Notes: a model not told the origin generated them from the letters alone. 64,000 bases of DNA from Verrucomicrobiia bacterium (GCA_963664225.1 OY760937.1:2272001-2336000); one strand, 5' to 3'. Positions 4,369 to 32,816 are shown, numbered from the stretch's first letter. Numbers and translations: made by a program.

Positions 4369-4385
4369 GTAGGGTAACACCCCAT
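4369..4385. promoter_or_regulatory. Recurrent near-palindromic site, copy 1 (GTAGGGTAACACCCCAT)
   Basis: Near-identical to 18210 and 21656 and related to 6312 and 32799. -10-like TATTGT at 4408-4413. Confidence 0.7.
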
Positions 4386-4544
4386 GGCACCGCCACGGGT
4401 CCATGTCTATTGTAAAATTAATGAAACCGGAAAGTCCCTGATTAGAAACCATCAGAACGCGAAAACAGCACTTTTAATTAAGCGCAACCGCAAAAGCATT
4501 GTGATGCTTTTATGACCATTACATTGCAACCCATTGAACCCACT

Positions 4545-4670
4545 ATGATTGCACTTATAATTCAACCCATGTTTGCAGCAGCGGGTTACTCGCTGATCTA
4601 TCTTCTGGGAGGAGGGGGTCTTTTGGGAGCCATCATCATTTTCATCATAGCAAAAATGCTTCGCAAATAG
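4545..4670 (+). CDS. Small 41-aa membrane protein (MIALIIQPMFAAAGYSLIYLLGGGGLLGAIIIFIIAKMLRK)
   Basis: Read by hand; below the ORF-track cutoff. Hydrophobic hairpin with a Gly run and a basic C-terminus. First gene after the motif. Confidence 0.7.
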   Translation: MIALIIQPMFAAAGYSLIYLLGGGGLLGAIIIFIIAKMLRK

Positions 4671-4700
4671 TTTATACATCTCAACATCTTGCTCAAGTCC

Positions 4701-5069
4701 ATGAAACACAATAAAAACCGCCATACCGCCCCAAACACAGGGCCTCAGCTCGTGCCCGTTTGTTTTGAATTCACCGATCCGAAAGCCACCACGGTTAGCG
4801 TGGCGGGAACTTTTAACCAGTGGAAACCCGAAGCCAAGACTTTGCATCCCGCCGGGGTTGGTCATTGGATAAAGGAAACGGCTTTGGCGCCCGGAACCTA
4901 CGAATATTGTTTGGTGGTGGACGGCCAGTGGATGCCTGACCCGCTTGCAAAAGAAACCGTGTCAAATCCGTACGGAGGGAGAAACTCGGTTTTAAAAGTG
5001 TTCGGCAATGCGCATGCAGCCCACCTCGACAACGCTGAATTTGAACCAATGAAAGATTCGTTAAAATAG
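4701..5069 (+). CDS. Glycogen-binding (CBM48/AMPK-beta-like) domain protein
   Basis: VSVAGTFNQW...LAPGTYEYCLVVDGQWMPDP...NPYGGRNSVL. Confidence 0.88.
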   Translation: MKHNKNRHTAPNTGPQLVPVCFEFTDPKATTVSVAGTFNQWKPEAKTLHPAGVGHWIKETALAPGTYEYCLVVDGQWMPDPLAKETVSNPYGGRNSVLKVFGNAHAAHLDNAEFEPMKDSLK

Positions 5070-5083
5070 AAAAGCTCGAAATT

Positions 5084-5389
5084 ATGAATAAATACACACA
5101 AGCAATCAGTGATGACCTTGGCCAACTGGCCGAAGACGCGCGCTCTCTGATGGAAGCCACCGCGGACGTGGCCGGAGAAAAGGTAGTGCAGGCCCGAAAG
5201 CGCCTCGCGGCCGCATTGGAACATAGCAAGAAAATTGCGAGCGGTGTGCGCGACAAAGCCGTTGAAGGGGCGAAAACGGCCGACGAAGCAGTCCGGGACA
5301 ACCCTTATCAGGCCATTGGCGCAGGCCTTGGGGTCGGGGTTGTCATCGGATTTCTACTCGCCCGCCTTTACTCCTGCAACCGCGAGTAG
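5084..5389 (+). CDS. DUF883 / YqjD-ElaB family protein
   Basis: Helical N-terminus followed by DEAVRDNPYQAIGAGLGVGVVIGFLL C-terminal anchor. Confidence 0.9.
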   Translation: MNKYTQAISDDLGQLAEDARSLMEATADVAGEKVVQARKRLAAALEHSKKIASGVRDKAVEGAKTADEAVRDNPYQAIGAGLGVGVVIGFLLARLYSCNRE

Positions 5390-6311: not shown

Positions 6312-6329
6312 ATGGGGTGTTTACCCCAT
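6312..6329. promoter_or_regulatory. Recurrent palindromic site, copy 2 (ATGGGGT-GTTT-ACCCCAT)
   Basis: Perfect 7-4-7 inverted repeat about 110 nt upstream of the glucan synthase. -10-like TACTGT at 6353-6358. Confidence 0.7.
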
Positions 6330-6439
6330 AGCGCAGAAGCGTTTCCATCGCGTACTGTGCTGCGACTGGTCTGTCAGATACGGCAATACACTCAAGAGGT
6401 CACCAATTGGAAACTGGTTATGGCGGAAGTAAGAACACC

Positions 6440-9400
6440 ATGCTGAACCTTTCGTCACACTGGCAAACCTGGATGGCCAGGCAGGCACATCCGCTCCCTC
6501 GCGCCAGCGAGCCGCCTTTGCGGGCTGATTTGTTCAGCGTGGACCAACTCGCGCGCCATGCCAGAGCGCTCGCAGCCAATCACCAGGTGGCCACCAGGGA
6601 GGGTTCAAACCGGCTGCTGGATCGATTGGTTCAAAACGAAGAAAGACTCAGAACCTTCAATCGCCAGACTCTGGCCGTGGGTCAAAGCAGGAGAATTACG
6701 CCCGCCGCAGAATGGCTTTTGGATAACTTTTACCTGATCGAGGAACAGATTCAAATGGCCAGAAGGCATCTGCCCCGGGGTTACAGCCGGGAACTGCCCC
6801 GCCTCGTGAATGGCCAATCGGCCGGACTTCCGCGTGTTTACGATATCGTTCTGGAATTGATATCGCATGTGGATGCGCAGATCGATGCGGAACCGCTGGC
6901 CGCCTTTATTGCCGCCTACCAAAACGTGGCACCCTTAAACCTCGGCGAACTGTGGGCCATCCCCATTATGTTGCGCCTGGGATTGATTGAAAATCTCCAG
7001 CGCATCACCACCCTGCTGACCATCGCCCGAGAAGACCGCGATCTGGCGGACTTATGGGTGGACCGATTGCAGGCCATGGCGGAAAAGAATCCCTCCCACC
7101 TCGTCATTGTGGTGGCCGACATGGCAAAAGCGAATCTTCCCTTATCCAGTTCCTTTGTGGCCGAGTTTTGCCAGAGATTATCGCGCCAAAGTCCAGTGTT
7201 GCACCTCGCACGCACATGGCTTGAACAAAGGCTGGTGGAACAAGGACTCTCAATCGAGCAACTGGTTCAACTGGAAAGCCAGAATCAGGCCGCAGACCAG
7301 GTTTCGGTCAGCCACAGTATTTCCAGTCTTCGCCTCTTGAGCGCAATGGACTGGAAGGAATTTGTGGAATCACTGAGTCTTGTCGAGAAGATTTTGCGCA
7401 CAGACCCGGCCAGGCTGTATAGCGCGATGGATTTTTCGACGCGCGATTGCTATCGTCATTCGGTTGAATTCACTGCGCGGCATGGACAACTTTCCGAAGC
7501 GGATGTGGCACTGCGCGCCATTGCAATGGCCGCAGAAAGCGCCGCGCAGAAGGGAATTGAAGATCGGACCTCTCATGTGGGGTTTTACCTGATCGATAAA
7601 GGCGATGCCATTCTGGCGCGGCTGGCGAATGTGCAGTGGCCATGGCGCACATTCATCGAACGGGGCATCCGTCGATTTCCGCTCACTTCCTATGCGGGCG
7701 GAATTGCCCTGGTCACTCTGATCGCCACCTTGGGATTCACCCTGCAGGCATGGAAACTTGAAGTGAACGGCTGGAAACTGACTCTCTTCGCCCTGGCATT
7801 CGTTCTTTGTGCGAGCCAACTGGCTGTGTCATTAGTCAACTGGCTGATAACGCTTTCGGTCAAACCCCGCCTGCTCCCCCGCCTGGATTATTCTTCCGGA
7901 ATTGCCTCAGAATGCAGCACGATGGTGGTCGTCCCCACAATGCTTGCGAGCCTGGAGGGAATCGATCATCTTATCGAGACCCTGGAAATCCACTATCTCT
8001 CGAATCGGGACAAGCATCTTTACTTCGCCTTGCTTACGGATTTTCGCGACGCAGCGGAGGAAATTCTGCCTGGAGATCAACTTTTGCTTGCGAGGGCGAA
8101 GGCTGGAGTCGAAATGCTGGGTCGCAAGTATTCCTCGGATCGAAAAGACCTCTTTTTTTTGCTGCATCGCCCACGCCGCTGGAACGCGAAAGAAGGAGTC
8201 TGGATGGGATACGAGCGCAAGCGGGGTAAGCTGACGGAATTCAACAGCCTGCTAAGGGGAGGCAGTGTCAACAGCTTCTCCGAGATCGTTGGTGACACGG
8301 CCATTCTCCCGTTGATCAAGTATGTCATAACTCTCGACACCGATACCCAATTGCCACGCGATACAGCCAGGCAGCTTGTTGGAACGATGGCTCATCCATT
8401 GAACCGTCCGCTGTTTGATGGCGTAAGCGGAATTGTCACCGAGGGTTACGGCATTCTGCAACCCAGAGTGGGTGTGAGCCTGCCGAGCGCGCGGCGATCA
8501 TGGTTTGTCAGATTATATGCGGGAGACGTAGGGATTGATCCCTACACCCGGGAAGTGTCTGATGTATATCAGGATGTCTTTGAGGAAGGTTCATTTATCG
8601 GGAAAGGTATTTACGATGTGGACGCTTTCCGGCGTGCGATGAGCAAACGCTTCCCGGAGAATGCAATTCTCAGCCACGACTTGTTGGAAGCCTGCCACGC
8701 CCGTTCCGGCCTTGTGAGCGATGTGACATTCTATGAAGATTACCCTTCCCGGTATATCGTGGACGTTGAACGACGGCACCGCTGGATTCGGGGGGATTGG
8801 CAAATCACTCGATGGCTCCTGCCAGGAGTTCCGAGTGCCGATGGCGCTCGAATTCGCAATCCTCTTTCGATTTTGTCTCAATGGAAAATAATCGACAACC
8901 TGAGGCGCAGTCTTGTTCCCATAGCCTTGTTGCTGCTCATGTTGGGTGGCTGGCTTCTCCCACCTCCCCTCGGAAGTCTTGGATTCCTGCTGGTGCTTTT
9001 ACTCATCACTTTTCACGGCATGGTGGCAAATCTGGTCAATTTGTTCTGCAAGCCGAAAGATTTGCCTTTGGCAATGCATTTAAATGGGGTGGCGGGCGCA
9101 TGCGCCCGCCAGTTCGGTCAGACCCTGCTCACTTTGGTTTTTTTACCTTACGAAGCCTTCATCAGTCTGGATGCCATCCTACGAACGCTTTATCGGCTGT
9201 TGGTAACACATAGACGACTCCTTGACTGGCAAACCTCCAGCGACTCCGAAAGGACATCGCGCTCAAGCATCACCAGCTTTTATACCGTGATGTGGATCGC
9301 GCCAGTTATTGCATTGTTTTCCGGCTTGATCCTTGCCGCCACACAGCCGGACCAACTTTCCCTATTCCTGCCGATCCTGGGACTCTGGCTCACCGCGCCT

Positions 9401-12400
9401 TGCATTGCCTGGTGGATCAGCAGGCCCATAGTATCGCCTCCTCCGGATCTGGCGACCGATGATCTGACCTTTTTACGACGCATCGCCCGCAAAACCTGGC
9501 ACTATTTCGAGACTTTTGTCACGGCACAGGAGAACTGGCTTCCACCGGACAATTTTCAAGAGGTTCCAACGCCAACGATCGCATCCCGGACTTCACCCAC
9601 AAATATGGGTCTGGCATTGCTCGCCAATATGGCAGCATGGGATATGGGTTACCTCTCAGCGGGCGGCTTGATAAACCGAACTCAAAAAGCACTTGGGACC
9701 ATGCAAGGTCTCGAACGCCATAACGGCCATTTCTATAATTGGTACGATACTCGGACCCTGCGACCGCTCCTGCCGCTCTATATTTCGAGTGTGGACAGCG
9801 GCAACCTTGCGGGGCATTTGCTTACGCTCAGTTCCGGACTCAGGGAGCAAGCCGATGGACCGATTTTCACACCGCAGATATTTGCCGGTCTGCATGACAC
9901 GGTGAAAGTTCTGAGAGGATTGGCCGGCAAAGACCCCGTAATCACGAAACTCGATGTGGAATTGCAGATGGCGCCTTCCAGCATTCGCAAGGCTTTTACC
10001 CTCCTGGAATGGGCAACAGGCCAGGCCACCGGGATTATTACCTCGCCCGCGCGCCAGGATGATGCATTCAAAGAATGGGCACAAACCCTGAAAGCCCATT
10101 GCGAAGACCATTTGGAGGAGATGCGTTTCATCGCACCATGGCTGGCGCTGCAAAGACCAAATCCGAGCAATATTGTTGAACAACAACTATTCCAACTCGA
10201 CAAAGCTCCCACCTTGAGAGCGATCACGAAATTTGATCAATCGCTCGTTCCATTGGTCGATAAGGCATTGCGGAATCTTACAGCGGCCGCGGACCCATCT
10301 CTTGCAGAGGAAACATATCACCTCACCGTCTTCTTGAGCAGTTTACGCACGGCAACCGAGAATGCCCGCCTACGGTTGCGCGCAATGGAAACCCTGGCCA
10401 CGCAATGCGAGGAATTGGCCGCGATGGATTTCGCCTTTCTATTCGATCCGGCAAGGGAGTTGTTTGCCACCGGGTACAATGTTACCGAACATCGCCGCGA
10501 CGCCAGTTTTTATGACCTGCTCGCCTCGGAGGCCCGCCTGTGCAGTTACGTGGCCATTGCTCTAGGGCAGGTGCCGCAGGACCATTGGTTTTCCATGGGC
10601 CGTTTGCTCGTCTCCGCGAGCAGCGAATCCATATTGGTTTCCTGGAGTGGCTCGATGTTCGAATACCTGATGCCGTTGTTGGTGATGCCAAATTATGAGA
10701 ACACATTACTCGATCACACCTGTAAAGCGGCGGTGCGACAACAGATCGCCTATGGGAAGTTTAGAGGAGTGCCATGGGGCATTTCCGAATCCGGCTATAA
10801 TCTGACTGACGTTCATCTGAATTACCAATACCGGGCTTTCGGCGTGCCGGGTCTGGGTTTGAAAAGAGGGCTGGCCGATGATTTGGTGATCGCTCCTTAT
10901 GCCAGTGCCATGGCGCTGTTGGTTGCACCGGTTGAAGCCTGCAAAAACCTGAGAAATCTGGCTGACGAACAAAATGAAGGACCATTTGGATTCTACGAAG
11001 CGATCGACTACACACCGTCGCGTCAGCGGCCTGAGGAATCGCGTGCCATCATCCGATCCTTCATGGCGCATCATCAGGGAATGAGTTTTCTGGCAATGGC
11101 CAACCTGCCGGGAGTAAATCTCATGCAACGGCGGTTCATGGCCTGCCCCCTGCTCAAGGCCTCTGAATTGCTATTGCAGGAGCGTGTCCCCAAGACGGCG
11201 GCAAATGTTTTCACTGAGGATTTGGAATTGGAGACATCCCGGGTTCCTTCAGGTGAAGTCGAGAGCGTCATGCGTGTGTTCACCAATCCGACATTGCCGG
11301 CGCCGGAGGTTCATCTGTTGTCCAACGGTAATTATCATGTCGTCATCTCCAGTGCGGGAGGGGGCTACAGTCGCTGGCGCGATCTGGCCGTCACACGGTG
11401 GCGTGAAGACGCCACGCGCGATTGCTGGGGGTCCTTTATCTATTTGCGCGACCTGGAGACTGAAGAATTCTGGTCCGCCGCTTATCAGCCTACCTTGCGG
11501 CCGGCGAAAGGCTACGAAGCCATCTTCACACAGGCGCGCGCTGAGTTTCGGCAGCATCGCGGCGGCATCGATATTCACACCGAGATCTGCGTGTCGCCTG
11601 AAGACGACGTGGAGTTGCGGCGCGTCACAATCACCAATCGTTCTTCGGTCACGCGCGTCATTGAATTGACCAGTTACGCCGAAGTGGCTCTTGTGACACC
11701 GGACGCAGACGCGGCACATCCCGCTTTCAGCAATCTGTTTGTGCAAACCGAATTCTCGCGAGCATCATCGTCAATCCTCTGCACCCGTCGTGCCCGCTCC
11801 CCGGAGGAAAAGCCGCCGTGGCTGCTTCATCTAATGCTTTCCACGGGCGGCAATCAGGGAGAGATCTCCTGCGAAACCGATCGATACCGGTTTGTAGGAC
11901 GCGGCCGGACCCTGGCCAATCCTGCCGCAATGCAGGGACTTTTACCATTGTCAAACACGGTCGGTTCCGTCCTGGATCCGATCATTTCTCTGAGGCGTAC
12001 GGTAGCGTTACCACCCAATGAAACCGCCATAATTGATCTGGTTATTGGCATGACCGATAGCCGGGAATCCGCGCTGGCGCATGTCGAAAAATATCAAAGT
12101 TCCCGCATGGCGGACCGTGCCTTCGATCTGGCGTGGACCCACAGCCAGGTGACCTTGCGTCACCTCAACGCCTCGGAGGGAGAGGCGCAGCTCTACGGCC
12201 GGCTGGCCAGTGCATTGATTTATGCCGATTCCGCGCGTCGGGCCATCCCCAGCGTGCTGCTCCACAACCGGCGCGGGCAAAACGGCCTCTGGAGCTACGG
12301 AATCTCCGGTGATGCGCCCATCATCCTTCTTCACATCAGCAACAAAGACAAAGTCGAAATCGTTCGCCAATTGATTCAGGCCCACTCCTATTGGCGCATG

Positions 12401-16861: not shown

Positions 16862-16863
16862 TT

Positions 16864-18209: not shown

Positions 18210-18226
18210 GTAGGGTTACACCCCAT
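18210..18226. promoter_or_regulatory. Recurrent site, copy 3 (GTAGGGTTACACCCCAT)
   Basis: Identical over 21 nt to 21656-21676; upstream of DUF3309. No clear -10 at the matching distance. Confidence 0.7.
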
Positions 18227-21655: not shown

Positions 21656-21672
21656 GTAGGGTTACACCCCAT
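21656..21672. promoter_or_regulatory. Recurrent site, copy 4 (GTAGGGTTACACCCCAT)
   Basis: Followed by TGa-TATAGA at 21691-21699 and the ATG at 21708. Confidence 0.7.
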
Positions 21673-21707
21673 GGCATTCCCCAGTCCTTTTGATATAGAT
21701 TATTCAC

Positions 21708-22124: not shown

Positions 22125-22153
22125 ATAGCACGGTTACAAGCCATTCAATTCCC

Positions 22154-22621
22154 ATGTTCACGCCATCGACCACAGTAAAGCCGGTTAATACTTTCAACGA
22201 CCAAACCGAGCCTGTACCCGACCAGACCATGATCGGTCCACCGATCCGCATACTGGTGGTGGAGGACGATTCGCTGGTCCTCGCACTCTATTCCAATGTG
22301 TTGTTACGCTCAGGCTATCAAGTGGACACGGCGGAAGACGGCGACGAGGGTTGGAAAGCGATTGATCTGGCAGCATGCACGGCTGAGAGTTACGACCTCC
22401 TGATCACTGACAACAGCATGCCGAAAGTAACGGGCGTTGAACTCATCGCCAAATTGCGCTCTGAAAATATGAGTTTGCCGGTGATCCTGGCCACGGGGCT
22501 GGCGCCCGGGGATACAGAGGCTCTCCGTCTTTCGGCCATTTTAATCAAGCCCTTTTCAACAACCGAGTTATTGCAAACGGTCCGGGAAGTCCTGCAAGGC
22601 GCCGCCGTTCGCCGGGCATAG
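22154..22621 (+). CDS. Single-domain response regulator (receiver)
   Basis: ILVVEDD, LLITDNSMP and LIKPF. Start codon uncertain (22154 or 22229). Confidence 0.88.
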   Translation: MFTPSTTVKPVNTFNDQTEPVPDQTMIGPPIRILVVEDDSLVLALYSNVLLRSGYQVDTAEDGDEGWKAIDLAACTAESYDLLITDNSMPKVTGVELIAKLRSENMSLPVILATGLAPGDTEALRLSAILIKPFSTTELLQTVREVLQGAAVRRA

Positions 22622-22639
22622 AATCTTGTTTTGTTGTAA

Positions 22640-22964: not shown

Positions 22965-24368
22965 TCAGGACTTCAGGGGCGCCTTCCTCCGCGTCGTGGT
23001 ATTCGCCATTGGAATCTCGGCCCGGATGATCGTCCCCTGCCCCGGCGAGGATTCCACGCTGAATTTTCCACCCACCATCTCCACCCGTTCCCGCATGCCG
23101 ATCAAGCCCAGGTGTTTGTTTTTCGCGCCGTGTAAATAACGCGCCACGTTGAAGGACTTGCCGTTGTCTTTGATCTCCATGCAGGCCATGGCAGATATTT
23201 TTTGAATGCTCACCAACACCCGGCTGGCTTCCGAATGACGGGCAACATTGTTGAGCGCGGACTGAACCACCCGATAGATCACGGTGATTTTGGCGCTGCT
23301 CAATTTTTCCACTTCGGCAATAGTGGTGAAGCGGACGCGGATGTTGGTCTGCTTTGTAAATTCCTTCATGAAGGAATGCAGGGTGGCGATCAGCCCCAGG
23401 TCGTCCAACAGCGTCGGGCGCAGTTCGCGTGCGAATCGATGGACAATGTTGACTGACTTTTCCACCATTTTTTGGGCGCGGGCAATTTTTCTCCTGATGA
23501 CTTCAGGATTAACCATGGTCTCCCGGGACAGGGCTTCCAGATGGACATTGATCCCCACCAGAGTCTGGGCGATGTCATCATGGAGATCGCGGCTGATTTT
23601 CCTGCGTTCCTCCTCCTGGACCTGGAGAACACGACGGGTAAGAAGACGCATTTGCTCCTGCATGCGGCGTGCCTTTTCCAACATCCTGGTTTGATGTTCC
23701 TCGCTTTTCTTAAGCGCTTCTTCCACAACCTGCCGCCGAAGAATTTCCCGATGCAGCTCCTGGTTCCTGACGGCCAGGGCTTCCAGACGGAGTTGCGCCT
23801 CGGCAGCCCGCTTCACAGAGGTAATATCGGCCACCGCCACCCGGCACCATTTCCGCGGATCACTGATCGAGACGGCGGGCACAGCCTGAAGGCTGGCCCA
23901 AATAGGGTCGTCGGCATCGTTCAGAAGAGCCACCTCGCAATTCTGTTTCCCGGTCCCCGCGAAGGTTTTCTGGAGAAAGGCCCGAAACATTGGCTGGGAT
24001 GCGGAGTCCACAAAGCGCTCGAGGCGTCCATGATACAAAAGAGATCGTTCCAAGCCGAGCATGGCGGCTCCCGTCAGGTTCACCTCCAGAATCTGACCCT
24101 CTTCATCCAGGGAAAAATAACCGACCGGGGCAAAATCATAGAGGTCGGTGTACTTCTCCACCAGCGTTTCCATCCGGTCCCTGGCCTCCTGGAGTTCCGT
24201 GTTCTGCATCTCCAGTTCGATATGATGGACCTGCAGTTCGTGAAGCAGACGGCTCGCGTCCGCCTCGGGCTTCTGCGTCCCGACCCGTAGCCGCTGCTGC
24301 TGCAATTGGGCTTCGGCGTTTCGGCGCAAGTCCGTCAGACCGGCTGGCTTCTTCGGCTTCTTAATCAT
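22965..24368 (-). CDS. PAS sensor histidine kinase, HisKA_3 (NarX/UhpB-like) class
   Basis: ERRKISRDLHDDIAQ H-box and LGLIGMRERV; N-terminal HELQVHHIELEMQN coil plus PAS. Confidence 0.92.
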   Translation of the reverse strand: MIKKPKKPAGLTDLRRNAEAQLQQQRLRVGTQKPEADASRLLHELQVHHIELEMQNTELQEARDRMETLVEKYTDLYDFAPVGYFSLDEEGQILEVNLTGAAMLGLERSLLYHGRLERFVDSASQPMFRAFLQKTFAGTGKQNCEVALLNDADDPIWASLQAVPAVSISDPRKWCRVAVADITSVKRAAEAQLRLEALAVRNQELHREILRRQVVEEALKKSEEHQTRMLEKARRMQEQMRLLTRRVLQVQEEERRKISRDLHDDIAQTLVGINVHLEALSRETMVNPEVIRRKIARAQKMVEKSVNIVHRFARELRPTLLDDLGLIATLHSFMKEFTKQTNIRVRFTTIAEVEKLSSAKITVIYRVVQSALNNVARHSEASRVLVSIQKISAMACMEIKDNGKSFNVARYLHGAKNKHLGLIGMRERVEMVGGKFSVESSPGQGTIIRAEIPMANTTTRRKAPLKS

Positions 24369-26116
24369 GGCGTGGCACTGATTTTTGGTTGTTTTTCCAT
24401 GACTTGTGAAATGAGTTCCTGAAGTTTTCCAATGTCGAAGGGTTTCGCCAGCGCCCCCTTGAACCCGTGTCGTCGATGCTCCAAAACCACTGGATCGTTT
24501 GGGTAACCACTCATGATAATGGCCTTGACTGCCGGATCCATCCGAAGCAGCGCCTCCATGGTCTTCTGCCCCCCCATGCCGGCGCGCACGGTCAAGTCCA
24601 GAATCACCGCATCGAAGGTTCGCCCCAGTTCTTTCGATTTCCCATAAATGTTGAGGGCGCTTTGGCCGTCCACCGCCAACTCCACCTCATGTCCCAGCTT
24701 CCGGAGCGTTGCCCCGAGAACACTTCTCACATCCTCATCGTCATCCATGAGCAGAATCCTCCCGGGCCGGGCAGATCGCTTCAGGACAGCGGTTTTCGCC
24801 GGGGCAATGTTTTTCCTGGAGACAGGCAGATAGATGCGGAAGGTGGTTCCCACCCCCACCGTTGACTCCACAAGGATTGCGCCACCATGTTTCTCAATGA
24901 TGGAATGGCAGATGGTCAGTCCCAATCCCATGCCCTTCTGTTCACCTCTTTGTTTGGTCGAAAAATAGGGGTCGAAAATCTTTGGCAAGGTCTCCCGGGC
25001 AATTCCCCCGCCCTGGTCGGCCATGCTCAAGCCAATATAATTGCCTGGTGGCAGGGATGGATGATCTTCGTGGCCGAAAACAATATTTTCTGCCCGGATG
25101 GTGAGCATTCCTCCATCCGGCATGGCCTCCCGTGCATTTTGGGCCATGTTGCGAATGACCTGCGCGATCTGCGACGCATCCACATCCGCAGTCCACAGTT
25201 CGTCCGCCAGCGCGAATTGACTACGCACCCGGGAACCGCTCAAGGCGAGCCCCACGGATTCCTGGATCAGCCCAGACAAGGAGGTTGCATTCACGATCAG
25301 GGCACCTCCTGGCGCAAAGGTGATGAGCTGCTGGGTGAGTCCGCGGGCCAGCAAAGTGGCTCTTTTCGCATCCTCAATCCGCCCCACCAATTCTCCCCCG
25401 GCTGCACTGGCCATCCCGGCCAGTTCCAGGTTCATGAGGATGACGGTGAGCAGATTGTTAAAATCATGGGCGATGCCACCTGCCAGAATGCCGGTGGATT
25501 CGAGCTTGCTCAGGATCAGACGATCCTCTTCCGCCCGTTTAATCTCGGTAATATCGGCCATGACCGCGCGACACTCCAGCTTTGAGCCGGACACCGTGGC
25601 CGCAATCCGCACTTCGAGCGGGGGCTGCCCTTCCCTGAGAATGGATAACTCACAGAGTTCCCTCGCCTTGCTCTTGAATACCTTCTTGAGAAAGGCGTTG
25701 AACGAAGCAAGGCCGTCCGGGCAAACGAAAAGTCCGAAGCGCCGTTTGACAAACCTGGAGCGCTCAAGGCCCAACAGGCTGGCGCATGTCAGATTGGCCT
25801 CGCAAATGACTCCCTCCTGGTCAAGGGTGAAGTAACCCACGGGTGCGAAATCATAGAGGTCGCTGTACTTCTCCATGAGCGACTCCATCTGGTCCCTCGC
25901 TTGCTGGAGTTCCTCATTCTGCAACTCCAACTCGATCTGATGCACTTGCAACTCGTGGACAAGGCGCTGCGTGTCGGCCACAGATCGTCCCAACCCGGCT
26001 TCCAGGTGCCGCTCCTTGAGACGCGCTTCAGCGCGGTGCCGCAGTTCGACGGCATCCATGGAGATATTGGGTTTATTATGCATGGCTTGTTTCTCGACGG
26101 GTGCGTTACGGCTCAC
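24365..26116 (-). CDS. PAS hybrid histidine kinase / receiver
   Basis: AGGIAHDFNNLL, IFDPYFSTK and GMGLGL; receiver LLMDDD / VILD / AKPF. GTGA overlap with the upstream stop. Confidence 0.92.
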   Translation of the reverse strand: MSRNAPVEKQAMHNKPNISMDAVELRHRAEARLKERHLEAGLGRSVADTQRLVHELQVHQIELELQNEELQQARDQMESLMEKYSDLYDFAPVGYFTLDQEGVICEANLTCASLLGLERSRFVKRRFGLFVCPDGLASFNAFLKKVFKSKARELCELSILREGQPPLEVRIAATVSGSKLECRAVMADITEIKRAEEDRLILSKLESTGILAGGIAHDFNNLLTVILMNLELAGMASAAGGELVGRIEDAKRATLLARGLTQQLITFAPGGALIVNATSLSGLIQESVGLALSGSRVRSQFALADELWTADVDASQIAQVIRNMAQNAREAMPDGGMLTIRAENIVFGHEDHPSLPPGNYIGLSMADQGGGIARETLPKIFDPYFSTKQRGEQKGMGLGLTICHSIIEKHGGAILVESTVGVGTTFRIYLPVSRKNIAPAKTAVLKRSARPGRILLMDDDEDVRSVLGATLRKLGHEVELAVDGQSALNIYGKSKELGRTFDAVILDLTVRAGMGGQKTMEALLRMDPAVKAIIMSGYPNDPVVLEHRRHGFKGALAKPFDIGKLQELISQVMEKQPKISATP

Positions 26117-28809
26117 GGAGTCTCGGTGGCGGTCCCACTTTTCTTAACGGTCTTCGCCGGCTTGACGGACTGTGCCTGAAAACGCTCTTCCAGGCTGGCA
26201 TGCTGATCCCGCAATTGCGCCTCCAGGGTTTTTGCCACGGTAATGTCCGTAAACGTGATGACCAGGCCGTCAATGCGGTTGTCCAGCGTGCGATAAGGCA
26301 TGATGCGCACCGTGAACCAGCGGCCGCCGCTGGCGCCAATGGGCTTTTCGACCGGGACGAGCGACTGAAGCACATTGCGCGCATCCTCCGACAGCTCCCG
26401 GTAACTAAGTTCGGAGGCCAGGTCGGTGATGGGTCGGCCCACATCGCCGGGGATCAGCTTGATGATTTTGTTCACCTGAGTGGTGAACCGCCGCACTTTG
26501 AGGTCGTTATCCAGAAACACTGTGGCGATGTCCGTGCTGTTGAGCAGGTTCTTCATGTCGTTGTTGGAGCGGGACAGCTCGTCCAACTTGGCCTGCAACT
26601 CCGCGTTCAACGTCTGAAGTTCCTCGTTCATCGATTGCATCTCCTCCTTCGAGGTGGTGAGCTCCTCGTTGGTGGACTGCAATTCCTCATTCGTGGATTG
26701 CATTTCCTCATTGGTGGATCTGAGCTCCTCCTGCGAAGTCTGCATCTCTTCGCGAGTGCTTCGCGCCTCTTCACGCGCTTCCTGCAACTCGCGCTGCAAT
26801 TCTGCCAGGTGCGGGGAATGAGACGCAGTTTTGGGGAACTTTCCCATCACTTTGGGTTCTGCGGGCGTAATCGCATCCTTGAATACGATCATCGCCAATC
26901 CCTTCAAAGGGCCGTCTTCCTCGAGCCGTTGAACGGTCACATCCACAAATTGGTCGCCGCCATCGTTTCCAATTTTAAGGCTGCGGAGCGTTGACGGGCC
27001 TTTTTCACGAAGGGCCTTCTGGAAGATGCCGGTCAATTCATAGCGGATCCCTTCGCGGGCCATGGCAAAAATGTTCCAGTTGGCTTTTCCAGCAGCGGGT
27101 TCGAGGTATTTACCTGTTCGACCACTAATGTAAAAAATGTCTCCCTTGTCATTAACAAGCGCCGCCGGAGGCGCGTATCGCTGCAGAACCAATTGATCCG
27201 CGAGGGTTTGAAGACTGGGGGGCGGTTTGGGGGCCTGGCGGGATTCCTGCCCGCCGGGTAGAAGCGTGCTAAATGTGGATGGAAATTCAACCGGGTCTGT
27301 TTGCAAGACCGATTCAGATCTCCAGAAAAGCCGCGATTTGCCGTTGGTCGGAGTAAATAGCTCGGAGAAGCCGCCAATCGTTTCCGCACTGCCGAGAAAT
27401 AGAATGCCACCGGGGTTCAGACTATAGTGAAACAACGGAAACAGCTTCTTTTGCATTTCAGGTGCCAGATAAATCAACAAATTGCGGCAACTCAGGATGT
27501 CGAGCTTGGTAAACGGCGGGTCCATGATGAGGTTTTGAGTGGCAAAGGTCACCATCTCGCGAATCTCCTTGCGCACCCGGTATCCGCTGGCTTCCTTGTT
27601 GAAGAATCGGGCCAGTCTCTCTGGCGACACGTCTGCGGCGATATTATCGGGATAAACTCCCTGACGGGCCTTGTCGATGGCGTCGCGATCCAGATCGGTG
27701 GCAAAGACCTGCATTGTGTAATGCACCTTGGGCATCGCTGACTCCACGGCCTCTTTGAGCACCATGGCCAGGGAATAGGCTTCCTCCCCGCTGGAGCAGC
27801 CCACCACCCAGGCCCGCAGTGTCTGACCGGAAGATCGCTTGTTGAGAAGTTGTGGGATGGCTTGTTTGCGCAACTGATCCCATGCCGCGGGATCGCGGAA
27901 AAAGTTCGTCACTCCGATCAACAACTCCTTGAATAACAAGTCCAGTTCCTGGGAGTTCTCCTGTAAATACCGGATGTAAGAGTCAATCTTGACAATCTGA
28001 TGAATACTCATGCGGCGCTCGATCCGGCGATAAAAGGTGTTTCTTTTATAGAGAGAGAAGTCATGGCCGGTGTGGGCGCGGAGCAGAATCACCACCTTGC
28101 TTAGCGCACTTTGGGTCTTGTCTATCAAAAGGCCCTCGGGCTTTGCGATGAGCGAGCTGTGCAGAAGAAAGGCGATGATCTTCTCAGGCAGTTGCTCCGC
28201 TGGAGCCACCAAATCCGCCAGGCCGGTCTCCACCGCGCTGCGCGGCATGCCATCGAATTTTGCCGATCCAGGGTCCTGTACCAGCACCAGGCCTGCTTTT
28301 TCCTTGATCGCCCGAATGCCCAGGGTGCCGTCCGATCCCATGCCGGACAGGATCACCCCCACACTCCGCTCCTGCTGATCCTGCGCGAGGGAACGCAGAA
28401 AAAAATCGATCGGCAGGCGCAGGCCCCTGGGAGCGCTCGGCTCCAGAAGGTGCAGCACCCCGTGCAGGATGGACATATCCTTGTTCGGGGGAATCACATA
28501 GACACAGTCTGGTTCCACTTTGGATTCATCCCTGACCTGGAGGACTTTCATACCCGTGGCGCGCTGGAGCAGTTCGGTCAGGATCCCCTTGCGCGTGGGA
28601 TCAAGATGCTGGACGATCACGAACGCCATGCCGCTGCCCGCCGGGACATGCCCGAGGAATTGTTCCAATGCTTCGAGTCCTCCTGCGGAAGCGCCGATTC
28701 CAACGATGGGAAACGAAACGCTGGCGGGTGGAGACGCGGCTTCTTTGTCCGTGGAAACTGAGGTGGCAGTCTTCTCCTGACGGCGTTTCGGTATTCCTTT
28801 ACGTTTCAT
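26113..28809 (-). CDS. CheB methylesterase / CheR methyltransferase fusion with methyl-accepting coiled coil and PAS (MAC-type)
   Basis: GASAGG, VQH and SGMGSDG (CheB); VTNFFRD and GCSSGEEAYS (CheR); EEMQSTNEELQSTNEEL heptads. Start uncertain. Confidence 0.92.
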   Translation of the reverse strand: MKRKGIPKRRQEKTATSVSTDKEAASPPASVSFPIVGIGASAGGLEALEQFLGHVPAGSGMAFVIVQHLDPTRKGILTELLQRATGMKVLQVRDESKVEPDCVYVIPPNKDMSILHGVLHLLEPSAPRGLRLPIDFFLRSLAQDQQERSVGVILSGMGSDGTLGIRAIKEKAGLVLVQDPGSAKFDGMPRSAVETGLADLVAPAEQLPEKIIAFLLHSSLIAKPEGLLIDKTQSALSKVVILLRAHTGHDFSLYKRNTFYRRIERRMSIHQIVKIDSYIRYLQENSQELDLLFKELLIGVTNFFRDPAAWDQLRKQAIPQLLNKRSSGQTLRAWVVGCSSGEEAYSLAMVLKEAVESAMPKVHYTMQVFATDLDRDAIDKARQGVYPDNIAADVSPERLARFFNKEASGYRVRKEIREMVTFATQNLIMDPPFTKLDILSCRNLLIYLAPEMQKKLFPLFHYSLNPGGILFLGSAETIGGFSELFTPTNGKSRLFWRSESVLQTDPVEFPSTFSTLLPGGQESRQAPKPPPSLQTLADQLVLQRYAPPAALVNDKGDIFYISGRTGKYLEPAAGKANWNIFAMAREGIRYELTGIFQKALREKGPSTLRSLKIGNDGGDQFVDVTVQRLEEDGPLKGLAMIVFKDAITPAEPKVMGKFPKTASHSPHLAELQRELQEAREEARSTREEMQTSQEELRSTNEEMQSTNEELQSTNEELTTSKEEMQSMNEELQTLNAELQAKLDELSRSNNDMKNLLNSTDIATVFLDNDLKVRRFTTQVNKIIKLIPGDVGRPITDLASELSYRELSEDARNVLQSLVPVEKPIGASGGRWFTVRIMPYRTLDNRIDGLVITFTDITVAKTLEAQLRDQHASLEERFQAQSVKPAKTVKKSGTATETP

Positions 28810-29161
28810 AATCCTTTGTCCTGCATCCGCAGAATGGGTCGCAACCGCCGCCATTGCGGGCTCGCCACATTGAGGCGACTGCTGCAACTGCCGGTTTTTG
28901 TCGGCCAGTGCCGTTGCCCGGTGGCGCCAGGCTTCATTGCGGTAACTTTATTTTGCACGATCGGATCAATAATCTCAACAACATATCTTGAAGCCCTGGG
29001 TAAAAACCCGCCCGGGAGCTTTCCCTCCGCACGCTCCCGGAGCGTGTCCAGTTCCCGCCTGAGGGTCCTGCTCCACGCCGCCTTCACTGCATTCATCACA
29101 TTCATGCGCCATCCGATTCGAATTGATTGGATCCAATGGGTGTTCGGTTCGCCCTCTCAAC

Positions 29162-30454
29162 TCAATCTTTTGTGGCGGATGCCCCGCTTTTGGCGAAAGG
29201 AACTTTTACCCGTATGGTGGTGCCCTGCCCGGGATCGGACTCGATGGTTAAGACGCCACACGCAAAAACCGCGCGTTCGCGCATGCCAAGCAAACCAATA
29301 TTGGGTTTCGCCTTTCGCGTGCCCGGGTGCCGATCCGGATCGAAGCCCACCCCGTCGTCCTGGATTGTCATCTCGACACCCGTGACATCGTGCGTCAGAA
29401 GTATGTTGACATGTCGGGCGCGGGCGTGTTTCTCCACATTCGTCAAGGCTTCCTGGAAAATGCGGTAGAGTGCCAGTTCGGTATCGGCGGGCAGCCGTTT
29501 TGTCAACTTCGCACAACTCACTTGCAAGCCCACACCGATTTTTTCAGCGAACTCCTCGCTGTCCCTGCGCAGGAGTGAGGCCAGACCCAGATGCTCCAAA
29601 ACGCTGGGGAGCAGGTTTTGGGAAATGCGCTCCACCTCCTCGACCGTCATGCCGATGATCGCCTGGAGTTTTATCGCCTCCTCCTTCGCCGACCTGTTGT
29701 GGGCCGGAAGCCTGTTCACCAGCACCTGGCTCCGAACCTGGACAGCGCAGAGCATCTGTGTCACGGTGTCGTGCAATTCCAGCGCCACGCGGGCGCGTTC
29801 AACTTCCTGCGCCTGCACCACGCGGTGCGTTAAGGCCCGCAGCAGTTCCTCGCTTCGGCGGGACTCCGTCAAGTCCGTCACCACCATGCCGATGGTCGCG
29901 CGATTTGAGCCATCCTCTGCTGTTGGACGAATGGAGATTTGCGCGGGCACTTGCGATCCGTCGCCGCACTTGAGCGTCACCTGGATTTTGGATCCGGATT
30001 TGCCGACCCTTTTCATAAGTGGGCGGAGGATGGCCAGATCTTCTGCGGAAAGAAACCGACGAAAGGACGTGCTGATCACCTGCTCCAGCGGACATTTGAC
30101 CATTCTGGAAAAGCACTGGTTGGCATAGAGAATCAGCTTTTCGGTGGTCAGCGTGAGCGCCCCTTCATTCATGGATTCGATGAGCACCCGATAGGGGTGC
30201 TCGGCGCCTTCCAGCGTGAACACCTGTGAGCCTTCCTTGCCCGCGACCATCACCGTATCCACCTCGCCGGTGCGGATGGCGCGGAGCGTTTCCTCGGCGG
30301 CGGCAAGGCGGGTGCGGAGTTGGTCCAATTCGCCGTCGTTCACCGCTGTGGGGCGACTGCCGTGCTGTCGAAGCTTGCGTGGGGGCGCCGGCCCGGGCGG
30401 CGCATCGGAAGTGGAACGAGTCTGGCGGGGCGTCTTCAAAGTGCGATTTTGCAT
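29162..30454 (-). CDS. PAS sensor histidine kinase, HisKA_3 class, with KaiB-cluster-type N-terminus
   Basis: AEETLRAIRTGEVD, ERARVALELHD, QEALTNVEKH and DDGVGF. Confidence 0.92.
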   Translation of the reverse strand: MQNRTLKTPRQTRSTSDAPPGPAPPRKLRQHGSRPTAVNDGELDQLRTRLAAAEETLRAIRTGEVDTVMVAGKEGSQVFTLEGAEHPYRVLIESMNEGALTLTTEKLILYANQCFSRMVKCPLEQVISTSFRRFLSAEDLAILRPLMKRVGKSGSKIQVTLKCGDGSQVPAQISIRPTAEDGSNRATIGMVVTDLTESRRSEELLRALTHRVVQAQEVERARVALELHDTVTQMLCAVQVRSQVLVNRLPAHNRSAKEEAIKLQAIIGMTVEEVERISQNLLPSVLEHLGLASLLRRDSEEFAEKIGVGLQVSCAKLTKRLPADTELALYRIFQEALTNVEKHARARHVNILLTHDVTGVEMTIQDDGVGFDPDRHPGTRKAKPNIGLLGMRERAVFACGVLTIESDPGQGTTIRVKVPFAKSGASATKD

Positions 30455-30789
30455 TTTGCGCTCAAATCAACCCCGACGAACAGGCCGTTGATATTCGCAA
30501 GGTTTCCGATGAAAAGGCGCACGGGGGTTGGAAATTTTATGATCAGCGTCGGGGTTGCCACGATCTGGTTTTTACGCGCCATTTCTGGCTGCTGATAGAT
30601 GTCGATCACTTCCAGGTCGCAGTTGCCTTTCATCTTGGTTTCGATTAATTGGCGAACGTGCAGGACGGCTTGGTGCGAGCGCTCCGTGGCTCCCGCCACA
30701 AACAGTCGCAGGACGTATTTATCCTTGGACCTGGCGGTCAGTGACTTCAAGGTGGTCTTGGCTGGGCGGCGGGTTATTTTGGTGATCAT
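30436..30789 (-). CDS. kaiB: KaiB family protein
   Basis: YVLRLFVAG, LEVIDIYQQP and IVATPTL. Confidence 0.92.
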   Translation of the reverse strand: MITKITRRPAKTTLKSLTARSKDKYVLRLFVAGATERSHQAVLHVRQLIETKMKGNCDLEVIDIYQQPEMARKNQIVATPTLIIKFPTPVRLFIGNLANINGLFVGVDLSAKCKIAL

Positions 30790-30816
30790 GGGCGTGGGTC
30801 GTGGTTAATCAGTCGC

Positions 30817-30919
30817 TCACAAATCCAGCCCGATGATTACTCGAGCGGTATCGGTTAATCTGCCAGGAATGGTCCGAACCGGCTTTGGCAATTCGCCGAT
30901 TGATTGTTTTGATTTTCAT
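30817..30919 (-). pseudogene. kaiB: Internally deleted second kaiB
   Basis: ATG coupled to the kaiC stop (TGATG) reads MKIKTI. In a shifted frame, 30900-30817 reads IGELPKPVRTIPGRLTDTARVIIGLDL*, a KaiB C-terminus. Confidence 0.8.
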
Positions 30920-32676
30920 CAACATCTCCTTGGCAGTTTTGGTTTGCCCCGCGCGCCGACTGCCACCTTGATATCCGCCTGACGCAGTCGGCTTGATTCC
31001 GCCCGTTCGGTGCCCAGCACGGAAGTGCGCGTGCCAACCTGTTCGGCGATCCGCCGCAGTTCCGCGGCTTCGGTTTCGTAATCGGAGCGCAGTCCGCTGA
31101 TCTGTCGTTCGAGCGCGCCTCGTTTGCGCTCCACCTCCCGCTTGAGCTGGGCGGCTTCCTGCTGGCCAGCGAGCACTGCGGCTTTTTCGAGCGCTCCCTG
31201 CGCCGCGCGGGCGGAACCGGTCAACACGCCACTGGCCCCGATATAGGCGTCCACGACATCAATGCCCCGGTCCGAAATCAGAAACTCGCGGATTTGGTTC
31301 GAGTGTGACATCCCGCGCGCTTTGAGCACGTATAGCACGCGATTGCGTTCACCGTTCCCTTCAAAGTCCTGCAATAACACCCAGGCGTCCATGAGCGAGG
31401 ACATGGCGTTTTCGCTCTGTTGCAGGGCGTGCCCGCCCTCCGTCAGACTGGTGAAGAGCGAGGTGATTTGACCGGCTTTCAAATAGTCAATCAGCCGCGT
31501 CACCATCCCCTTGCCCTCGTAGTCAGCGCCGGAATCCATCAGGCTGGTGATCGGATCCACGATGACAACGTGGGGTTTAAAGGTGGCGATCTCCTTGAAC
31601 ATGGTGGCCAGGTGCATTTCCAGGCCGTAGAGAGATGGCCGCGCCGAGTGAAACCGCAGCAAGCCGCGCTTGACCAGAGGCTCCAGGCGCAATCCGATCG
31701 AACGCATGTTACGGATGATCTGGTCGGGAGATTCTTCAAACGAGAAAAAGAGCACACGCTCCCCGCGCAGGGCGGCCGCCTGGGCAAAGTTGGCGGAGAT
31801 GATGGTCTTGCCCGTGCCGGCTGTGCCCGTGAGCAGGATGCTGCTCCCACGAAAGAATCCCTTCCCGCCCAGCATCGCGTCAAGCCGGTGTATTCCAGTG
31901 GCAATCCGCTCATCCGACACCGTGTGATTCAGCGACAGCGACGTGATCGGCAGCACGCTGATGCCCTCGGCGCCGATGAGAAACGGAAACTCGTTGGTGC
32001 CGTGTTGCGCGCCGCGATATTTCACCACCCGCAAATGACGCGTGGCAATCTGGTCATTGACCCGGTGGTCAAGCAGGATGACGCAGTCGGACACGTACTC
32101 CTCCAGCCCGTGGCGCGTCATTTGATCGCGCCCACGCTCCGCCGTGATGACCGCGGTCATGCCCTTTTCCTTGAGCCAGCGGAAGAGTCGGCGCAACTCG
32201 GAGCGCAGGATGGCTTCGTTGGGCAGGCTGGCGAACAACACTTCCAGTGTGTCCAGCACAACGCGTTTGGCGCCGATGGAATCAATCGCATGACCGAGCC
32301 GGACGAACAATCCTTCCAGGTCATAGTCCCCACTTTCCTGAATTTCGCTGCGCTCCACATGGACGTAATCGATGACGATCTTTTTGCTCAGGACCAGTCC
32401 TTCCAGATCGAATCCGAGCGACGCGACGTTGGCCTTCAACTCCTTCTCGGTCTCTTCAAAAGCCATCAGCACGCCCGGCTCGCCGAAGGTCGCCGCTCCG
32501 CGCACGAGGAATTCCGCCGCCAGTAGCGTCTTGCCACAACCTGCGCCGCCACATACCAGCGTGGGCCGTCCGCGCGGCAACCCGCCGCCAGTGATTTCGT
32601 CGAGCCCCTGGATGCCCGTGGGACACTTTGGCAATGGAATTGCAGTTGAGGCGAAGTGGAAATTATTCTTTTTCAT
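30919..32676 (-). CDS. kaiC: KaiC double-domain ATPase/kinase with C-terminal coiled coil
   Basis: Two Walker A motifs (GGAGCGKT, GTAGTGKT), AFEE and SFEE, KYRG and KARG; SSLMD at the phosphosite position. Confidence 0.95.
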   Translation of the reverse strand: MKKNNFHFASTAIPLPKCPTGIQGLDEITGGGLPRGRPTLVCGGAGCGKTLLAAEFLVRGAATFGEPGVLMAFEETEKELKANVASLGFDLEGLVLSKKIVIDYVHVERSEIQESGDYDLEGLFVRLGHAIDSIGAKRVVLDTLEVLFASLPNEAILRSELRRLFRWLKEKGMTAVITAERGRDQMTRHGLEEYVSDCVILLDHRVNDQIATRHLRVVKYRGAQHGTNEFPFLIGAEGISVLPITSLSLNHTVSDERIATGIHRLDAMLGGKGFFRGSSILLTGTAGTGKTIISANFAQAAALRGERVLFFSFEESPDQIIRNMRSIGLRLEPLVKRGLLRFHSARPSLYGLEMHLATMFKEIATFKPHVVIVDPITSLMDSGADYEGKGMVTRLIDYLKAGQITSLFTSLTEGGHALQQSENAMSSLMDAWVLLQDFEGNGERNRVLYVLKARGMSHSNQIREFLISDRGIDVVDAYIGASGVLTGSARAAQGALEKAAVLAGQQEAAQLKREVERKRGALERQISGLRSDYETEAAELRRIAEQVGTRTSVLGTERAESSRLRQADIKVAVGARGKPKLPRRC

Positions 32677-32798
32677 TCAATGACATTCGCTTCAAGCGCG
32701 GGTGAAATACCGGGTGTATCCGATAATGGCAGATCTTGGTTTTATTTAATGACCGCATGTTGCTGGTTCCATACTAACCCTTTAGATTGGAATGTTAT

Positions 32799-32816
32799 AT
32801 GGGGTGAACACCCCAT
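32799..32816. promoter_or_regulatory. Recurrent palindromic site, copy 5 (ATGGGGT-GAAC-ACCCCAT), upstream of kaiC
   Basis: Perfect 7-4-7 inverted repeat. Minus-strand -10-like TAGTAT at 32776-32771, at the same spacing as in copy 1. Confidence 0.7.

Follow-up and report, generated by a model that had tools for sequence, protein, structure and literature searches.

A palindromic motif, a response regulator of NarL type, and kaiC-kaiB genes in a candidate stress regulon of Verrucomicrobiota

Histidine kinases of the HisKA_3 type pair with response regulators of the NarL family, and among the described systems of this kind the DevR/DosR dormancy system of Mycobacterium appears closest in logic to the one considered here. 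The subject of this analysis is an inverted-repeat motif of 17 or 18 base pairs (bp) that occurs five times in a stretch of 64,000 nucleotides (nt) from a Verrucomicrobiia bacterium (the window; bases 2272001-2336000 of a one-contig 5.78 Mb Verrucomicrobiota genome with 56% G+C). The protein proposed to bind it is a response regulator of 225 amino acids (aa), with a receiver (REC) domain and a GerE domain, encoded 5.8 kb before the window start (genome 2265530-2266207; L001:11530-12207). Motif and regulator would together define a two-component stress regulon of the NarL family, to which a kaiC-kaiB pair is linked. The literature search turned up no account of this motif, regulator or regulon, although one may exist, and none of a general stress response or global regulator in Verrucomicrobiota.

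Described systems of similar logic

In the DevR/DosR system the HisKA_3 kinases are DosS and DosT, and the proximal DevR box lies close to the -35 position. The DevR box is described as a palindrome with G4G5G6A7C8T9 in each half, and DevR is stated to need at least two tandem boxes (PMC3177182). Set beside that description, the present system is alike in its NarL-family regulator, its HisKA_3 kinases, a G-rich palindromic box with GGG-containing halves, and a stress or dormancy regulon that includes a nitroreductase and the system's own signalling genes. It is unlike in that the halves are GGGGT/ACCCC rather than GGGACT in a box of 20 bp, in having mostly a single 17- or 18-bp site per promoter instead of tandem boxes, in having PAS rather than GAF sensors, in its KaiBC linkage, and in belonging to another phylum. 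The closest solved structures to the regulator were VraR (5hev, E 7e-45), then DesR and NarL, while DevR was only the sixth-best match (E 4e-25); the alignments to all four ran over the full length.

The other NarL-family systems showed a similar mixture of likeness and difference. NarL and NarP of E. coli share the REC+GerE family and a C-rich half-site of similar length, but the NarL 7-2-7 arrangement (TACYYMT-N2-AKRRGTA) has halves of the opposite orientation and a spacer of 2 rather than 3 or 4, and it serves nitrate respiration rather than stress protection. A reading of the window made from the sequence alone (the sequence-only reading) had predicted a NarL/LuxR-type regulator on the grounds that the half-site resembles TACYYMT and that two HisKA_3 kinases are encoded nearby; the regulator gene was indeed found, with flanking motifs, while the resemblance proved superficial. 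Of the cell-envelope stress regulators VraR and LiaR of Firmicutes, VraR is the nearest solved relative and a stress-responsive NarL-family activator, but they differ in recognition sequence and regulon, and the present system has no LiaF-type partner and would take its input from PAS kinases and KaiBC. The organisation of LiaR sites is reported to be variable (PMC4482077). As in NarL/FixJ systems generally, the regulator joins a receiver to a C-terminal GerE domain, and in relatives a HisKA_3 partner is encoded beside it.

Two further systems are alike in content or in parts. The alphaproteobacterial PhyR-NepR-EcfG system has a comparable content (CsbD, DUF883, PRC-barrel, Dps and BON/OsmY-type proteins) and also joins multiple PAS kinases to one output, but there an extracytoplasmic function (ECF) sigma factor is released by partner switching, whereas here a DNA-binding response regulator is proposed. 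The EcfG promoter (GGAAC-N16/17-CGTT) was not recognisable, since the position matrices contain neither GGAAC nor CGTT and the motif-rich region around the window start holds no sigma-70-family gene. The cyanobacterial KaiABC-SasA/CikA-RpaA system likewise combines kaiC and kaiB with a histidine kinase and a DNA-binding regulator, which in relatives of the present genome lie in one operon; here the kinase is of the PAS-HisKA_3 type with no KaiB-like domain by Pfam, and the regulator is NarL-type in contrast to the OmpR-type RpaA.

The motif, its promoters and the regulator

Two position weight matrices (PWMs), one for a spacer of 3 and one for a spacer of 4, were built from training loci taken exclusively from other genomes and applied to this genome, with three simulated genomes (order-3 Markov) as the chance control. 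There were 39 strand matches of at least 20 bits, which make up 28 loci, compared with 0, 0 and 1 in the simulated genomes. The 26 matches between 12 and 20 bits were at chance level, the simulated genomes having 15-24 matches of at least 12 bits. A one-mismatch pattern search, in which 0.16 strand matches were expected, returned 4. Of the 28 loci, eleven were located within 41 kb around the window start (genome 2,263,564-2,304,816; the island).

Placement between genes, which the sequence-only reading had claimed for the five copies, was evident for most loci across the genome. On a crude map of the longest open reading frames (ORFs), which covered 89% of the genome, 20 of the 28 loci fell in the 11% without ORF cover (binomial P 5e-14). 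For the other eight, the sole cover came from a 5' extension of the ORF behind the site or from ORFs about 100-180 aa long; a Pfam scan of one of these ORFs found no family, and four others were outside the scan. The flanks of the copies had nothing in common beyond the motif, and because these flanks are unrelated and 20 of the 28 loci lack ORF cover, the motif is not a mobile or REP-type (repetitive extragenic palindromic) repeat.

The motif occurs either as an 18-bp palindrome (ATGGGGT-N4-ACCCCAT) or in a 17-bp form that is asymmetric (GTAGGGT-N3-ACCCCAT). When sites were anchored at the ACCCCAT end, 29 strand hits from this genome and 190 from relatives agreed on R-T-R-G-G-G-T as the left half and (C)ACCCCAT followed by R-G-C as the right half, with 3 or 4 nt between the halves. 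Beyond the site, A was found at +23 (20/29 own, 108/190 in relatives) and T at +27 (21/29 and 117/190), together pointing to a TAnnnT hexamer that starts 22 nt past it. Such a hexamer at offsets of 21-23 beyond ACCCCAT was present at 18 of the 39 own strand hits, where 0.56 were expected, and at 69 of 161 sites in relatives. Among 17-bp sites, 6 of 11 in this genome and 36 of 68 in relatives had it past the ACCCCAT end, and none had it past the other end (0/11 and 0/68). The 18-bp palindromes had a -10 on one side in 5/8 own and 28/51 relatives' cases and on both sides in 1/8 and 3/51. The asymmetric form would thus give strictly one-way promoters, with the better half beside the polymerase.

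If the hexamer is taken as -12 to -7, the site extends from about -52 to -35, with its centre near -43.5. At the -35 position of the 56 productive sites the hexamer was T-R-G-C-R-N (T56 R50 G49 C42 R45 N), with a mean of 2.5 of 6 matches to TTGACA, bearing in mind that this phylum's own -35 consensus may differ. A site that abuts the -35 position, a poor -35 hexamer and a fixed register to the -10 are the features of class II (-35-overlapping) activator-dependent promoters, and all three were found. Generic consensus promoter and terminator scans gave results at chance level. In the relatives' loci L011-L090 there was also a weak G/G/C preference at +11 to +13 past the motif (93, 98 and 81 of 190), within the spacer between motif and -10. 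For each oriented site of the 80 regulator-flanking loci described below, the longest ORF starting 25-350 nt past the site was recorded (n=173), and the start codons of these ORFs peaked at 34-35 nt (17/173), about the predicted transcription start. ATG was not enriched there (14/28 vs 76/145), so that the peak is only a hint of leaderless transcripts.

The regulator matched Response_reg (2.4e-28, residues 6-118) and GerE (3.8e-19, 155-210) in Pfam and fell below every NCBIfam equivalog cut-off, its NarL match reaching 137 bits against a cut-off of 250 bits. It sits between a palindrome at genome 2265134-2265151, 379 nt upstream, and a site at 2266314-2266331, 107 nt downstream, and the latter precedes genes for a receiver-only regulator, a PAS kinase and a hybrid kinase. 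In 80 loci of other Verrucomicrobiota genomes, taken from more than 572 relatives, the regulator had 64-78% identity, and a loose form of the motif (GGGT-N3/4-ACCCCAT) was present in 65 of the 80, at 310 per Mb compared with 14 per Mb across this genome. The positions recurred: just past the regulator stop codon, ahead of the regulator start by about 100-170 nt (by 103-145 nt in four loci), and about 2 kb upstream, where an operon begins that encodes a HisKA_3-only protein, a HisKA_3 kinase and the regulator (L025, L045).

The kinases showed the same linkage. In 25 cases the ORF right behind the motif was the HisKA_3 kinase gene that precedes the regulator, and in 64 of the 70 loci with enough upstream DNA a HisKA_3 kinase gene ended less than 800 nt before the regulator. 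In this genome no HisKA_3 kinase gene adjoins the regulator. The kinase encoded at 22965-24368 of the window is the best own match to the kinases co-operonic with the regulator in relatives (58% identity), and that at 29162-30454 has 65% identity to a kinase located between kaiB and the regulator in the relative L037. The two island HisKA_3 kinases pointed out in the sequence-only reading are thus tied to the regulator through orthologues that share its operon. Given the contiguous module of the relatives, this genome carries the module split into three pieces, all within the motif-rich 41 kb.

The co-occurrence of motif and regulator was profiled with a strict motif pattern in a phylum sample of 200 genomes of at least 90% completeness, with the reversed pattern as control; orthologues were called at E ≤1e-55, with at most 14 candidates scored per genome. 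The strict pattern was used since the loose one is noisy as a phylogenetic marker (49 loose vs 8 strict matches in G075, and 14 vs 1 in G120). The sample contained 114 strict strand matches, compared with 10 for the reversed control. Twelve of the 21 genomes with a regulator orthologue had the motif, as did 11 of the 179 in which no orthologue was found (odds ratio 20, Fisher P 4e-8, a P value that overstates the association because related genomes are not independent). Of the 12 genomes with both, 11 had a site no more than 3 kb from the regulator gene. When 40 genomes of the same order were searched with the loose pattern, G020 had 29 matches, G028 25 and G008 20, against 2-3 for the reversed control, and the genomes of this order without a match had no close regulator.

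From the position of the motif and its association with the regulator we infer binding by this regulator, activation rather than repression, and the likely input. Specifically, we assign a probability of roughly 0.7 to a model in which the phosphorylated regulator binds the inverted repeat RTRGGGT-N3/4-ACCCCAT as a dimer near -43.5 and activates promoters that have a poor -35 and a TAnnnT -10. Dimer binding, as in NarL/FixJ systems, is predicted from an inverted repeat that co-localises and co-occurs with the regulator. Abutting the weak -35 region, the dimer would recruit polymerase with a housekeeping-type sigma factor to the -10 hexamer, in a class II-type activation. The likely inputs would be the two PAS-HisKA_3 kinases of the window and, through these, the KaiC-KaiB pair. 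Signalling genes would themselves belong to the regulon (kaiC-kaiB-kinase, two receiver-only regulators and hybrid kinases), and in relatives the regulator operon also lies behind the motif, which would provide feedback.

Regulon content and the KaiC-KaiB genes

Judged by the genes behind it, the motif marks about 28 units that are predicted to form a general-stress, osmotic or dormancy-type regulon. The units for stress and protection comprised CBM48-DUF883, DUF3309, an sll1863-family stress protein, a PRC-barrel protein, a PRC+BON protein, superoxide dismutase followed by Dps/ferritin, a nitroreductase, and LemA with an M48 peptidase. Units for the envelope and metabolism included a glucan synthase with an ABC transporter, a unit of MlaA-like protein, type III polyketide synthase, methyltransferase and FAD monooxygenase, a B12/radical-SAM enzyme, phosphoketolase, a GT4 glycosyltransferase, an ATP synthase alpha/beta-type subunit, a cytochrome c + DUF302 pair in two copies, a P-type ATPase, a DUF7507 surface protein of 1777 aa and a 2'-5' RNA ligase-like protein. 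Signalling was represented by kaiC-kaiB-kinase, a 138-aa protein with a receiver-only regulator, a receiver-only regulator with a PAS kinase and a hybrid kinase, CheB, and a PAS hybrid kinase. Several small ORFs without known family made up the rest. The two cytochrome units (sites at genome 1345275 and 2854121; L003 and L008) appear to be one regulon unit in duplicate, because the 30 nt downstream of the two sites are identical and each site precedes a like gene pair.

The relatives showed a similar content, so that the general-stress or osmotic character ascribed to the downstream genes in the sequence-only reading holds by Pfam both here and there. Sixty-three of the 173 downstream ORFs matched proteins of the regulon of this genome or their neighbours. 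From the remaining 110, 93 were scanned against Pfam, the 17 left out being duplicates or overlapping the regulator or another listed ORF; 51 of the 93 had no family. The families found were triple-BON (9), 760-aa GT4 (4), ferritin/Dps (3), fatty-acid desaturase (3), YflT (2), type III polyketide synthase (2), OsmC, entericidin, DUF948, MlaE and GrpE. The motif was also retained upstream of orthologues, for example in 2 of 2 loci of the radical-SAM enzyme and 4 of 6 loci of a 65-aa ORF. None of random placement, a mobile repeat or missing conservation at orthologues, outcomes by which the sequence-only reading would have fallen, was observed.

The KaiC of the window (30919-32676, minus strand) passed the NCBIfam equivalog NF006799, with 716 bits against a cut-off of 408, and its nearest solved structure was 8dba (E 1e-190). 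The 568-aa KaiC of 8dba/8fwi is the KaiA-independent hourglass KaiC of Rhodobacter. KaiB (30436-30789, minus strand) scored 71.5 bits against a Pfam cut-off of 27 but stayed under the cut-offs that NCBIfam sets for KaiB. A search for KaiA (PF07688) at E 0.01, which detected the Synechococcus control, found none in this genome. With KaiC and KaiB present and KaiA not found, this is therefore a KaiBC-only system and not a KaiABC oscillator.

The genes of the Kai proteins and of the regulator are neighbours in relatives. In L037 one tight row consists of a PAS-HisKA_3 kinase, kaiC, kaiB, kaiB, a PAS-HisKA_3 kinase, a 188-aa ORF, the regulator, the motif and a receiver-only regulator; its second KaiB has 69% identity to the window KaiB, and its two kinases have 58% and 65% identity to the window kinases at 22965-24368 and 29162-30454, respectively. 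Of 61 loci with enough sequence, 13 had kaiB at most 3 kb upstream of the regulator, together with kaiC where the sequence reaches. As a member of the regulon kaiC was the least conserved: of 8 relatives, 2 had a site no more than 600 nt upstream of it (33.6 and 22.5 bits). In G028 kaiC directly follows a kinase gene. Based on the L037 gene row, the 13 loci with kaiB near the regulator and the position of this genome's own kaiC-kaiB-kinase genes behind a 33-bit site, we tentatively propose, at a little under even odds, that a KaiA-less KaiC-KaiB timer acts via the two PAS-HisKA_3 kinases and the NarL-type regulator to set a phylum-wide stress or dormancy regulon, with the kaiC motif as feedback.

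KaiC-like proteins reportedly improve stress resistance in Pseudomonas, according to a preprint (10.1101/2022.01.26.477890). For the cyanobacterial KaiB3-KaiC3 pair, one article states that output components are unidentified (PMC11372060). The HisKA_3-only first gene of the regulator operon in relatives (L045:4092-4811; L025:4089-4814) encodes 240 aa whose N-terminus gave a weak RsbU_N match (E 6.8e-5, below the cut-off). The same article gives the KaiA fold as common to the RsbU N-domain (PMC11372060), so this protein could be a KaiA-like adaptor.

All five copies of the motif listed in the sequence-only reading were present in the window, and they were its sole matches of at least 12 bits; hence the 33-64 kb region, which includes the housekeeping half said to be free of them, has no sites. 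The -10-like hexamers reported for four of them were found 21-23 nt past the motif. The reported gene calls (DUF883, CsbD, DUF3309, AI-2E, BrkB/YihY, GH94, CBM48, KaiC, KaiB, two HisKA_3 kinases and CheB-CheR) were confirmed by Pfam. Two weaker candidates, at 18787-18803 and 28995-29012, both scored below 12 bits and are unsupported as sites; in relatives the motif was found directly upstream of csbD in two loci and of cheBR in one.

The first site, GTAGGGTAACACCCCAT at 4369-4385 on the plus strand, is asymmetric (17 bp, 31.9 bits), with TATTGT at 4408-4413. The predicted unit behind it, on the same strand, consists by Pfam of CBM48 (AMPK1_CBM, 4689-5069) and DUF883 (5084-5389), and orthologues of the CBM48 gene had the motif upstream in 4 of 7 relatives' loci. 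The 18-bp palindrome ATGGGGTGTTTACCCCAT at 6312-6329 matched on both strands (32.7 and 30.2 bits) and has TACTGT at 6353-6358. It is followed by a cyclic beta-1,2-glucan synthase-like gene (6407-15130, 2907 aa, GH94/GT2), whose orthologue had the motif upstream in 1 of 2 loci, and by two ABC transporter genes (15146-18177). The asymmetric 17-bp sequence GTAGGGTTACACCCCAT occurs twice on the plus strand, each time with 34.0 bits. At 18210-18226 it is upstream of DUF3309 (18280-18510), after which the same strand carries csbD (domain in an ORF at 18802-19152), an AI-2E transporter gene (19355-20512) and BrkB/YihY (20576-21526).

At 21656-21672 it has TATAGA/TAGATT at 21694-21701. The predicted unit behind this copy encodes a 138-aa protein without known family (21708-22124), whose start codon roughly coincides with the predicted start of transcription, and, in ORF 22079-22621, a receiver-only response regulator. 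In 2 of 2 loci, orthologues of the 138-aa protein had the motif upstream, at 36 and 396 nt. The second palindrome, ATGGGGTGAACACCCCAT at 32799-32816, matched on both strands (18 bp, 32.8 and 32.6 bits) and was the sole palindrome of this genome with TAnnnT on both sides, TAGTAT (plus strand 32771-32776) toward kaiC and TAACGT (32839-32844) toward a 69-aa ORF (32970-33179). Transcription from this site is predicted to run on the minus strand through kaiC and kaiB into the PAS-HisKA_3 kinase gene at 29162-30454, assigned by Pfam.

Other genes of the window flank these units. A CheB-CheR-PAS fusion (26113-28887), a hybrid kinase (24365-26116) and the other PAS-HisKA_3 kinase (22965-24368) are encoded on the minus strand with overlapping stop and start codons (families by Pfam), and no site of at least 12 bits was found upstream of this unit (22965-28887). 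Positions 1-4296 of the plus strand are the tail of a unit whose motif lies 819 nt before the window (genome 2271181, 29.4 bits), with a small ORF, a 656-aa MlaA-like protein (ending at 1467), type III polyketide synthase (1443-2561), methyltransferase (2565-3269) and FAD monooxygenase (3262-4296). Orthologues of the MlaA-like gene had the motif upstream in 4 of 9 loci, and a type III polyketide synthase gene was directly behind the motif in two other genomes (L033:2493-3557 and L049:4173-5531). A stress-induced phenolic lipid is a possible product of the row of polyketide synthase, methyltransferase and monooxygenase. The Rfam search of the window gave nothing but a group II intron, at 57490-59415 on the minus strand (RF02005 at 59182-59415, 70.4 bits; RF00029 at 57490-57594, 43.4 bits).

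Rival readings and significance

Several findings weigh against the proposal that this regulator reads the motif and activates from it, and some of them suggest that another protein reads the operator, with the neighbouring regulator being just a member of the regulon. Candidates for such a reader would be a paralogue, a stand-alone GerE protein or an unrelated factor. Two paralogues are encoded at genome 4474338-4474994 (L092, 64% identity) and 5266668-5267312 (L117, 52% identity); both have near-identical recognition helices, and the former adjoins a HisKA_3 kinase gene. In L045 a GerE-only protein was directly behind the motif. Two genomes, G007 (5 loci, 87% complete) and G183 (2 loci), carry sites although no orthologue was found with this query. 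Nine of the 21 regulator-positive genomes lacked the strict motif, and eight of the nine belong to one clade, families f36/f35, which was distinguished on a quick version of the regulator tree used solely for this clade. There (L098-L106) the recognition helix is unchanged (ISIKTVEKHR), and near the regulator gene only the proximal CACCCCATRGC half was found, the distal half being degenerate. Nevertheless, no PWM match of at least 12 bits was found near either paralogue in the scan of this genome, whereas motif and regulator are linked across orders and the motif precedes the kinase-regulator operon itself. A different reader is thus rather unlikely. A distant genome, G234, was set aside as an exception to the co-occurrence. 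It has 15 perfect 17-bp palindromes ATGGGGTCWGACCCCAT and no regulator orthologue was found, but the palindromes lie among mobile or defence-type genes, with seven within 10 kb (L093 = G234:C4:42001-60000; also L094) among P63C, Bro-N, ORF6N, Tle1-like and AAA/PD-(D/E)XK genes, and they could represent an unrelated intergenic repeat that belongs to a mobile or defence island.

Other unfavourable points concern the sites themselves. Two spacings (N3 and N4) are unusual for one dimer. A crude test of ORF orientation at asymmetric sites (ORFs of at least 100 aa) gave 1 forward-only against 2 reverse-only cases in this genome, compared with 19 against 5 in relatives. As for autoregulation, the palindrome at 2265134 has no TAnnnT at 21-23 nt on its regulator-facing side. 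The geometry of the site at 18210 is also atypical, since it lacks TAnnnT at 21-23 nt and has TATATT at an offset of 11, ahead of which, by 17 nt, a GTTACA within the motif would serve as the -35. Binding could repress at this site, or the true start may be elsewhere. Such an arrangement would fit a reading in which the regulator binds and blocks the -35 region until a stress signal arrives, and the site does overlap the -35 position by at least one base. Repression of this kind is quite unlikely in view of the poor -35 hexamer, which is typical of activator-dependent promoters, and of the strict helical register to the -10 and the better half-site nearest the promoter, which fit recruitment better than occlusion. 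That the conserved block is instead the -35 element of an alternative sigma factor, of the ECF or sigma-54 type, is suggested by the proximal ACCCCATRGC, which is the best conserved part and directional, by the likeness of TGGCA to the sigma-54 -24 element, and by the weak G/G/C signal 11-13 nt onward. The sigma-54 promoter has an invariant GG and GC with 10 nt spacing, but 93 of 190 sites have A where the first G would be expected, and what is conserved instead is TAnnnT, as is usual with housekeeping-type sigma factors. In addition, ACCCCA is 23 nt from the -10 and too distant to act as a -35 element, the upstream and proximal halves together make an inverted repeat, none of the 35 sigma-70-family genes lies within the 2.263-2.305 Mb island, and no Sigma70_r2 was found among the relatives' ORFs scanned, in which weak region-4 matches fall on the GerE helix-turn-helix. 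We therefore regard a sigma element as very improbable. The 18-bp form can make a 7-bp hairpin, and the scattered palindrome of G234 recalls a repeat, but the 17-bp form has no folding potential (z-score -0.5), the motif lies upstream of the -10 and has no T-run after it, simulated genomes yield 0-1 matches, flanks are unrelated and the motif is kept upstream of orthologues; chance, a mobile repeat, an RNA hairpin or a terminator is scarcely credible.

Activation by the REC+GerE regulator, if correct, would make up a package of one regulator, a 17/18-bp site with fixed promoter geometry, putative cognate kinases and a regulon of about 28 units, many of whose products are without family. Verrucomicrobiota are abundant in soil, peat and water. 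The analysis links the KaiBC of a non-photosynthetic bacterium to a candidate DNA-binding output, by which the long-open question of Kai targets becomes testable. If the proposed Kai timer is real, a KaiBC system from outside the cyanobacteria would for the first time have a defined transcriptional output, consisting of a regulator, a DNA motif and about 28 target promoters. The motif could also help with the annotation of stress genes across the phylum's many uncultured genomes.

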